Shown: positions 17,008 to 18,396 of the stretch, in pieces
Position numbering within the stretch: position 1 is the first letter of the stretch
How the letters are laid out: each line of letters begins with the position of its first letter
Origin: Stylophora pistillata
Lineage: Eukaryota
Direction: 5' to 3'
NCBI RefSeq assembly: GCF_002571385.2
Contig: NW_019218163.1
Coordinates: 202,939-266,938, forward strand
Length of the DNA stretch: 64,000 bases
Notes under the pieces: model-generated
Told to the model about the DNA's origin: nothing
Seen by the model: only the letters and a program-made list of their open reading frames with translations
Database searches by the model: none
Made by a program: the position numbers and the translations under genes

Positions 17008-18396
17008 TTACCTCAGTTGTCCAAGGCAATAATTTGTTATAGACCATTTCTTTCCACTGATAAATGCTTGAATAAGCATCACAGGCATCTGAAAATGATT
17101 GAACATAAAGAATGGCACAGGATCACTGGCATCCAGAACTCCATCTTTACCATTCTGCAAAACCTGCAGAAACTCTCCAAAACCTTGCTGGAAAAGCCAA
17201 ACTTTGGCAATTTCATTGTATAACCAGTAGACGTGGGTAGAGGAAGGAGACGGCTCCACTGGAACCTCAAGCTGAAATCGAGTATCCATGGCTCCACGGA
17301 TAGCTCTCTCAAGATCTGGCTGCATGTCATAAGAGACAATGGCAGAATGGAGCCGTGGGTTGCACTCAATACAGTACACCTCACCAGTTTTCTCATCTTC
17401 CAGGAAGTCAAAACAAATGCAACCTGTGAGTTGCTTGGCTCTGCAAAACTCCACTACCCACCTTTTGATTGCAGGGTGTTGGACAACATCATAATCAATC
17501 TGCATTGGTGAACAAGGACATACCTGAAAGGCTTGGAGATATCCATTCACAACGATGGCATTGGCTGCGAATTCCTTTCCCGTTATGAACTGGTGGATCA
17601 GGTATGGATTATTACTGTTAACCTTTCTCTCATAGCAAGCAATATAGTTATCAAATTCTTTTGCATTGCTTGGTATGTAAGTGAAGTTTAATCGGTCTTC
17701 AGAATATGGCATCAAAGGTTTCAGAAAGTAGTGGCCTTTTGAGAAAAGACCCTTCCTAGCCATTTCCTGGACTTCACTTGTACTATTCACTTCCTTAAAG
17801 TACGGCACTTGAAGTCCAAGCTCTTGGCATTCCTTAAGAAAAAGAACCTTACTGTCAAGAATAGTGGGCAACTTTGGGTCGTCAAAAACAAGACATTTTA
17901 TCAAAGGGTTTACTTCTGCCAGACGCTGTTTAATGATTGTGTCTGCTACAGCCGTCTTTGTGTGGCTAACTGGAATATACCAATCAATATTCTCAGCCTT
18001 TGCAACATTTATCATTCCATTAATATATTTTTCTTTTCCATTGTAGGAATTTAAATTTGGCACTGTGTAGAATTTTGAAATGAAGTGAGACCATTGAACA
18101 GCAGAGCACCAGAAGTCTTCTGTGTCAGCCACAATAACTCTGTGACCAGCTTTGCCCAAGGTTTTGGCAATGTGGAGACCTTTGGTGTGAGCAACACCTG
18201 ACACCAGCACAGTCTGTCTGAGTTTTTCTGCAATCTGTTGATCTTGTCTGGTTCTCTTTCCAAACAGCCAACAACCAATGGTGAACAGAAGACAGAATGG
18301 TGTGGCAAAGAGAAGCATGAATAGGTAGACAGCAGCTTTCATTCTGTACCAGTGTTGGCCAAAATACATCACAGGTTTTTGTCTAGCACTCTCCAT
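17008..18396 (-). CDS. mysC: MysC-like ATP-grasp ligase (mycosporine-glycine synthase family), intronless CDS, 462 aa
   Basis: Colinear with cyanobacterial MysC as I recall it: N-terminal hydrophobic segment, TVLVSG..TKGL.IA..L.KAGHRV, KFYTVP, ENIDWYIPVS, LGLQVP, QFITGKEF, LTG.I.FDF, CIECNPRLHSAI, YWLYNE, DPVPFFM.HFQMP. Confidence 0.9.
   Translation of the reverse strand: MESARQKPVMYFGQHWYRMKAAVYLFMLLFATPFCLLFTIGCWLFGKRTRQDQQIAEKLRQTVLVSGVAHTKGLHIAKTLGKAGHRVIVADTEDFWCSAVQWSHFISKFYTVPNLNSYNGKEKYINGMINVAKAENIDWYIPVSHTKTAVADTIIKQRLAEVNPLIKCLVFDDPKLPTILDSKVLFLKECQELGLQVPYFKEVNSTSEVQEMARKGLFSKGHYFLKPLMPYSEDRLNFTYIPSNAKEFDNYIACYERKVNSNNPYLIHQFITGKEFAANAIVVNGYLQAFQVCPCSPMQIDYDVVQHPAIKRWVVEFCRAKQLTGCICFDFLEDEKTGEVYCIECNPRLHSAIVSYDMQPDLERAIRGAMDTRFQLEVPVEPSPSSTHVYWLYNEIAKVWLFQQGFGEFLQVLQNGKDGVLDASDPVPFFMFNHFQMPVMLIQAFISGKKWSITNYCLGQLR

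Follow-up and report, generated by a model that had tools for sequence, protein, structure and literature searches.

The stony coral Stylophora pistillata carries in its own genome, and transcribes, a gene that we assign to the MysC family, the ATP-grasp ligases of microbial mycosporine (UV-sunscreen) synthesis, with a coding sequence at positions 17008-18396 (minus strand) of the window, that is, the whole 64,000-nt stretch of DNA analysed here. We lean towards the reading in which this single, spliced host MysC would phosphorylate 4-deoxygadusol and condense it with glycine, using a pocket that would have been rebuilt early in an animal lineage. Judged from its sequence, it appears to be a known host gene in an animal-specific variant. 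Indeed, MysC homologs of anthozoan hosts have been on record since 2011 for Acropora digitifera and Nematostella vectensis (Shinzato et al. 2011, as cited in PMC4083563 and PMC10901607). The full texts searched, a set outside which most subscription papers lie, contained neither assays of an animal MysC nor an analysis of the positions discussed below, and none reported a MysC from copepods; the animal clade may already appear in the supplementary ATP-grasp trees of PMC6001144 and PMC10510106. The maker of the coral sunscreens and the origin of the host-type MAAs are treated as a long-open question in sections of PMC3083659 and PMC9298759.

Gene structure and host origin

The open reading frame encodes 462 amino acids without an internal stop, and its GC content is 42% compared with 32-41% in the adjoining kilobases. 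The reading of this frame and the predicted fold bear out the 462-aa ATP-grasp ORF of the original prediction, and its setting between intron-bearing animal genes and a MITE was likewise found: the neighbours are a multi-exon SCO1/SenC gene (three of four exon pieces match PF02630), a DCX-domain gene spliced from 23298 to 24450 in RNA contigs, and a MITE-like element at 20734-21243 with 100-nt inverted arms (94%). Note that this element sits in a stretch where the depth summed over the contigs of the DNA run is very high. Profiles of cyanobacterial MysA, MysB, MysD and MysH (built from 78, 76, 68 and 32 proteins, respectively) gave no match in the 64-kb window or in the 10 kb past each end, in agreement with the earlier statement that the window lacks MysA, MysB and MysD, and no NRPS domain was matched in the seven ORFs of the window that were scanned. 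Over the window and 10 kb on each side, the coral mysC is not adjacent to mysA-mysB, which is the arrangement of MysC1.

The gene had been described as intronless, which holds for its coding sequence, present in one exon, but not for the gene itself, which has a 5′-UTR spliceosomal intron of 1,350 nt (GT..AG; 18406..19755, minus strand). The joint 18405->19756 was found in two of three poly(A) RNA runs (X15 and X16, from two studies), with the splice sites read, and was absent from the third (X18) and from the DNA run X10. On the minus strand, the intron starts with GTAGGT, and its 3′ end, a pyrimidine tract followed by CAG, lies 9 nt above the ATG; an in-frame TGA comes directly after the acceptor, 9 nt ahead of the start codon, and an 11-nt tandem repeat lies inside the intron (~18830-18932). 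The non-coding first exon measures at least 88 nt (19756..19843, minus strand), this being the length that the shorter arm of the X16 joint covers. A probable 3′ UTR (15807..17007, presumably on the minus strand, the contigs being strandless) is covered by an X18 RNA contig running from 15807 into the ORF and by an X15 contig that starts at 16328.

The intron joint in RNA, together with a contig depth of 22.1 over the ORF in the DNA run compared with 17-24 for the single-copy flanks, excludes contamination, as had been argued from the intron-rich surroundings. In addition, among the 24 public runs listed, 20 (from 10 studies) contain at least half of the sequence words of the ORF, six being recorded as RNA. 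One could still invoke a misassembly that placed DNA of a symbiont or a bacterium in a coral contig, given that the coding part is a single exon and that at least one contig of the assembly (L006) looks bacterial; this is hardly credible in view of the spliced GT-AG intron, the host-level depth, the presence of orthologs in chromosome-scale records of Acropora and Montipora and the grouping of the gene with anthozoans in trees.

Family identity and fold

The assignment to MysC, already made in the original prediction, is supported by similarity and by tree position. The coral protein is identical to MysC of Nostoc HK-01 at 144 of 440 positions (33%, E 8e-72), and the gene of this closest plasmid match lies between mysA-mysB and mysH-mysD in a mysA-B-C-H-D cluster; in trees, the coral protein falls inside the MysC radiation. 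Its AlphaFold2 model (32-row alignment, mean pLDDT 90.0) has a three-domain ATP-grasp fold, for which the top Foldseek and VIA rows are ATP-grasp enzymes, the best VIA row being 2pn1_A (Z 23.1, rmsd 3.8, 294 aligned). Pfam ATP-grasp_3 is matched slightly under the cut-off (E 1.5e-4), and the ESM Atlas returned solely bacterial and ascomycete ATP-grasp clusters. Sequence, profile, Foldseek and VIA searches found no MysC structure in the PDB, the coral sequence giving 0 matches and the profile 11 distant ones, none of them a MysC. The model also contains the N-terminal hydrophobic helix common to cyanobacterial MysC (aa 9-45; 18262..18372, minus strand), with a best 19-aa hydropathy of 2.24 compared with 2.59-2.65 in two Nostoc MysC.

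The top NCBIfam match is PRK06849 (E 1e-68), and the coral gene is unlinked to other mys genes, both of which would suit a PRK06849-like ATP-grasp ligase with a role in the animal outside MAA synthesis. We consider this very improbable: the score of 232.1 bits does not reach the cut-off of that model (NF005315, 406 bits), identity to PRK06849-like plasmid proteins is 22-27% over partial length as against 33% over 93% for MysC, and the trees place the coral protein among MysC, outside the PRK06849-like outgroup rows.

At least 80% conservation across the four non-animal, non-fungal MysC groups, taken with equal weights, defines 76 columns, and the coral protein retains 60 of them, with K72, D181, K183, K226, R235, E275, D330, E344, N346, R348 and H350 among the retained residues. 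Of these, K183, K226, E275, D330, E344, N346 and R348 are the putative nucleotide and metal residues, roles that we take partly from the alignment to carbamoyl-phosphate synthetase and partly from general knowledge of ATP-grasp enzymes. The putative metal-binding signature IECNPR (aa 343-348; 17353..17370, minus strand) is intact and aligns to IEVNPR of that synthetase. Length, N-terminal helix, ATP-grasp core and putative catalytic residues are thus shared with the glycine-type cyanobacterial MysC1 (Ava_3856 type; PMC10666671), whereas the 33% identity, the lack of a cluster and the separate clade set the coral protein apart from MysC1, including that of Nostoc linckia NIES-25 (L099).

Diverged motifs and specificity positions

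Four diverged motifs had been pointed out, GVAHTK (aa 67-72), LDSK (180-183), AANA (277-280) and NYCLGQLR-stop (455-462). All are present, and they align to GAKMTK, LDDK, CTHS and DFNIGKLVELGGD of Nostoc HK-01 MysC, the first being GGKMTK in N. linckia; they occur clade-wide, in Acropora, Montipora and the clade that bears Calanus glacialis. For comparison, we used 81 MysC1 proteins (81 loci, nearly all beside mysA-mysB), 24 MysC2/C3 proteins from 12 tandem mysD-C-C loci among 127 Nostoc-genus genomes searched (assigned by layout after the description in PMC10510106; the five Nostoc genomes searched first held none), and rows defined by the tree, namely 25-26 coral-clade, 19 Calanus-clade, 4 raphidophyte, 18 algal-type, 12 bacterial-type and 37 fungal-type, the labels of which rest on few names, with matches below 380 aa and most near-identical coral rows omitted.

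Two of the motifs were rejected as specificity markers. In LDSK (17848..17859, minus strand), K183 is kept, and S182, at the break before helix 183-192, is nearly private, its column being D in 24 of 25 coral-clade orthologs and variable across the family. AANA (17557..17568, minus strand; on strand 273-283) does not track specificity because the non-glycine enzymes keep what it replaces (CTH in MysC2/C3, the H in 36 of 37 fungal-clade rows) and the algal rows vary. The claim of divergence stands for the loop 67-72 and the lost tail, which coincide with non-glycine lineages. In the GVAHTK loop (18181..18198, minus strand), a predicted part of the amine pocket, K69 and M70 are replaced and K72 is kept; from other ATP-grasp ligases, the loop after the first strand is presumably the amine site. 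K69 is present in 81/81 MysC1, 18/18 algal-type and 3/4 raphidophyte rows, and absent from all coral-clade (0/26), Calanus-clade (0/19), MysC2/C3 (0/24) and fungal-clade (0/37) rows. At the C-terminus (NYCLGQLR-stop; 17008..17034, minus strand), the ExGGD tail is absent, with D455N, K460Q and a terminal R462. All MysC1 (81/81) have an ExGGD/DGD tail, which is lacking throughout the MysC2/C3, fungal, raphidophyte and coral rows.

Two other sites follow the same groups. D91 (18124..18126, minus strand) stands in place of the E of glycine-type MysC, and the animal clade shares D with MysC2, MysC3 and the majority of fungal rows; H145-T146 (17959..17964, minus strand) is S-P in MysC1, I-F in MysC2/C3 and H-T in raphidophytes too, which share this pair and the loss of the tail and keep K69, E91, D455 and K460. 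Among 103 conserved glycine-type columns, only 69, 91, 145 and 146 change in both MysC2 and MysC3, and all four are changed in the coral and Calanus clades as against 18 of the 99 others (Fisher p = 0.0017, a value that ignores column dependence, and the four may simply be the most tolerant columns). Taken together as a MysC1 signature, K69, M70, E91, S145-P146, D455, K460 and the ExGGD tail are all missing from the coral protein, this signature being a correlation derived in the present comparison and not a published definition.

The likeness to MysC2/C3 (ornithine/lysine; PMC10510106, PMC10666671) thus concerns the changes at 69, 91, 145 and 146 and the missing tail; unlike the coral protein, MysC2/C3 carry other replacement residues except D91, keep CTH and M70, and are tandem paralogs after mysD nested in cyanobacterial MysC, whereas the coral gene is single-copy in a separate clade. 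The fungal-type clade, related to the ATPG of the mycosporine-glutaminol cluster (Phaffia; PMC10057719), likewise carries N455 and is without K69 and the tail, with one of its 37 rows named (Mixia) and a glutaminol product presumed for its members. It forms a separate clade, and P142-V143, D181, Q299, Q436 and G459 are changed there as well and are kept in the coral protein as in glycine-type MysC. Positions 69, 91, 145-146 and the C-terminal tail would be the likeliest sites of amine choice in MysC, which matters for sunscreen engineering, and the single-exon coding sequence suits direct use in existing 4-deoxygadusol-producing yeast or E. coli, making the enzyme easy to assay.

Glycine or another amine

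In the reading that we favour, ATP likely phosphorylates the C3 hydroxyl of 4-deoxygadusol, as described for the Anabaena enzyme (PMC10666671), and the phosphorylated ring is likely condensed with glycine to give mycosporine-glycine, the amine displacing the phosphate by analogy with that enzyme. H70, H145-T146 and R462 would replace K69 and the lost tail in an amine pocket predicted to have been rebuilt early in an animal lineage. The ring would be supplied by host MysA and an unlocated methyltransferase, or by symbionts, and the product would feed the host MysD-like ligases.

The loss of K69, the tail, K460 and D455, which is partly seen in the non-glycine types as well, would argue against glycine. 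A preference of the animal-clade MysC for another amine (taurine or beta-alanine, methylamine or ammonia, or Ser/Thr) is therefore a serious rival, possible though somewhat doubtful; the use of another amine had been proposed for this gene, and it would concern the whole animal clade and not this coral alone. In the taurine/beta-alanine variant, the anion-binding charge would be shifted outward, from K69/K460 to R462. With any of these amines, the host MysD-like ligases would help to give the host-type MAAs (mycosporine-taurine, mycosporine-methylamine-Ser/Thr, palythine-Ser/Thr) without symbiont glycine chemistry. The positions altered are those altered in the Orn/Lys-type MysC2/C3 and in the glutaminol-type fungal enzymes (PMC10510106, PMC10666671, PMC10057719), and the fixation of H70, N279, N455, Q460 and R462 in the coral clade and again in the Calanus clade (≥ 90% in each) looks like selection on a new pocket. 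Literature accounts point the same way: mycosporine-taurine is described as diet-independent in anemones and ascribed to host enzymes yet to be identified, corals are said typically to contain methylamine and amine MAAs, palythine-serine sulfate is presented as enigmatic, and mycosporine-beta-alanine is on record for Cnidaria. Moreover, the classic HPLC method is reported to have merged mycosporine-glycine with mycosporine-taurine, and the mycosporine-glycine of a holobiont can be made by the symbiont.

Glycine ligation is nonetheless favoured because the gene is single-copy in a genome with mysD-like genes, and a host using another amine would be left without a glycine ligase despite these genes; MysD is described as acting on mycosporine-glycine (PMC10666671). 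It is also favoured because coral MAAs are mostly glycine-derived, with C3-glycine or groups explained as products of glycine decarboxylation (PMC3083659), and because mycosporine-taurine was reported, as of 2011, only from sea anemones among invertebrates. According to parts of PMC3083659, mycosporine-glycine reaches up to 95% in some Acropora and Pavona, and zooxanthella-free planulae have been suggested to make MAAs. The raphidophytes, which share some of the changes, belong to a group that makes glycine MAAs (mycosporine-glycine and shinorine are reported for Chattonella), and Calanus shows only common MAAs, the passages on Calanus propinquus giving common glycine-derived ones and no unusual MAA. 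In addition, K72 is retained, the overlap with the fungal changes alone is not significant (8/22, p = 0.076), and the subclade of the Nematostella protein, which is separate and more variable, lacks H70, T146 and Q460.

A wider form of the rival reading, in which an old animal MysC lineage (stony corals, anemones and calanoid copepods, with distant snail and millipede copies) would ligate a non-glycine amine through the rebuilt pocket, is unlikely. If true, animal-clade MysC would be the missing host enzyme for the host-type MAAs of corals and anemones, and copepods, thought to take MAAs from food or bacteria, would encode part of the pathway.

The rest of the pathway in the host genome

Genome searches with the coral protein, a Nostoc MysC and the Nematostella protein gave one match per query, this locus alone, with one or two candidates scored per query, so that a very diverged copy could escape. 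The view of the gene as a paralog was rejected on this count. The host has mysA-like genes on contigs C618 and C403 and a broken copy on C141, while C618 and C490 each carry a mysD-like gene of five exons, the distance from mysA to mysD on C618 being ~13-16 kb. Compared with the 2011 presence report for anthozoans, in which the DHQS-like and O-MT parts are fused in one gene and the fourth gene is NRPS-like, S. pistillata has an unfused mysA, no mysB match and mysD-like genes.

With glycine as the amine, a full host pathway would still be opposed by two observations: neither the Nostoc protein nor the anemone O-methyltransferase domain matched a mysB in the search of the gapped assembly, and the C618 mysA, which is spliced in RNA, ends directly after the cyclase domain without an O-methyltransferase domain. 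They could also mean that the amine is ordinary and the ring is not, with desmethyl-4-deoxygadusol as the substrate or 4-deoxygadusol from symbionts or food re-aminated in a salvage step. The Orbicella MysA match likewise lacks the domain, whereas the Actinostola match has one, and the surroundings of mysA, ~75 kb on C618 and 47 kb on C403, stretches that contain thousands of N, showed no methyltransferase exons. This reading appears improbable, since the assembly is gapped, a genome search can miss short exons, and the unlinked multi-exon PF01596 genes on C9 and C585 could carry out the methylation.

Relatives and acquisition

Similarity searches gave 98 and 102 close matches, and 1,167 representatives at E ≤ 0.001, the best 150 of which were considered; names were sought for 30 clusters, and most members are nameless. 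The named cnidarian relatives are Acropora digitifera, A. palmata, A. muricata, Montipora foliosa, M. capricornis and Nematostella, and the other named animals are Calanus glacialis (one protein), a millipede (Chamberlinius) and a snail (Batillaria), with Heterosigma, Fibrocapsa, Vitrella, Mixia and Rhizophlyctis outside the animals. Phylogeny, the check named in the original prediction, places the coral gene inside the MysC radiation, with anthozoans and the Calanus-labelled cluster. Indeed, a 67-row LG+G4 quick tree gives a 27-row clade (SH-aLRT 100) made up of the query, corals, Nematostella and the Calanus cluster, and this anthozoan-Calanus clade is recovered in a mixture-model quick tree (45/69 rows) at SH-aLRT 99. 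The homologs XP_015768220.1 (A. digitifera), XP_074626231.1 and XP_067049623.1 and the Montipora proteins belong to it, and the aligned anthozoan cluster representatives (P0043, P0045, P0047) carry the motifs of the coral gene.

The gene had also been presented as horizontally acquired. An old acquisition of the animal MysC by horizontal transfer is plausible from the trees, but the AU test rejects joining the animal clade to cyanobacterial MysC (p = 0.0015), whereas joining it to the millipede and snail rows is compatible with the data (p = 0.51). Raphidophytes as sister or donor had a support of 95 in the LG+G4 tree and were unsupported under the mixture model. Sections of PMC6001144 term the ATP-grasp phylogeny unclear and describe the genome of a clade C Symbiodinium as lacking the cluster.

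The Calanus membership of the clade comes from one transcriptome label, and none of the best 120 of 943 matches to the host MysA exon is labelled copepod. Should the Calanus-labelled clade prove to be truly copepod, the supply of MAAs to zooplankton from food or bacteria only, as presented in parts of PMC7073964, would need rethinking. A metagenome scan with a Calanus-clade protein returned two loci of ~1.7 kb, without neighbours.

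MysA-like and mysD-like genes elsewhere in the genome

In the Stylophora pistillata genome, a spliced mysA-like gene (contig C618, 101146-107150; locus L013) and a five-exon mysD-like gene (C618, 120130-124490; L015) lie on the same strand, 13-16 kb from each other and surrounded by host genes; a second mysD-like gene is carried by contig C490 (L018). Note that the fourth coral pathway gene is named as NRPS-like, not MysD-like, in the portions consulted of PMC4083563 and PMC10901607. The mysA of C618 (L013:1147-2073) ends without an O-methyltransferase domain; this domain is fused to mysA in Actinostola, and the same fusion is reported for Acropora and Nematostella in passages of these two papers. 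Searches of the S. pistillata genome with two protein queries found no mysB. On contig C403 there is an inverted partial duplicate of mysA, which is perhaps an assembly artefact, and on contig C141 a copy interrupted by stops. In one relative's genome, linkage of MysC and MysA is suggested by their respective matches (P0049 and P0451), since the longest contig given for each has 1,769,552 bases. In addition, a 2-kb contig of the assembly (C3075:1-2077; L006) holds three closely packed intronless ORFs, in the order sugar-phosphate cyclase, UbiG-like frame and UbiA-like frame (names assigned by eye), and looks like bacterial contamination.

Relatives of the MysC ligase

In our trees, a plankton-dataset MysC clade (P0056/P0264 and 18 related cluster representatives, together with the metagenome loci L117 and L118) groups with anthozoan MysC, and only one protein of this clade bears the label Calanus glacialis. 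The MAAs of zooplankton are said to come from food or bacteria in PMC7073964. MysC-like proteins were also found on long genomic records of the millipede Chamberlinius hualienensis (P0139 and P0433) and the snail Batillaria attramentaria (P0137 and P0435), and the trees place them outside the coral-Calanus clade. The subclade with the Nematostella protein (P0050-P0067, P0100 and P0102) is much more variable than the stony-coral orthologs at positions 69, 70, 145-146 and 460-462 and is a candidate for mycosporine-taurine synthesis.

The MysC gene and its surroundings

The first exon of the MysC gene and its splice donor are spanned by a diverged duplication with copies ~640 nt apart (19732-19928 and 20390-20569; families D2, D7 and D8), with the promoter and first exon present a second time, perhaps in decayed form. 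At 17868 and 17582 (codons 177 and 272), the reference disagrees with all four runs compared (three poly(A) RNA and one DNA), whose sequences are nearer to the orthologs; these differences are alleles or assembly errors. Elsewhere in the window, two long single-exon ORFs, one hydrophobic (309 aa; 40713-41642, minus strand) and one basic (356 aa; 53300-54370, plus strand), gave zero matches in the Pfam scan. ARAGORN called a tRNA-Thr at 49111-49183 and a tRNA-Ser at 15709-15782, the latter sitting within a high-copy repeat and being more likely a tRNA-derived SINE.
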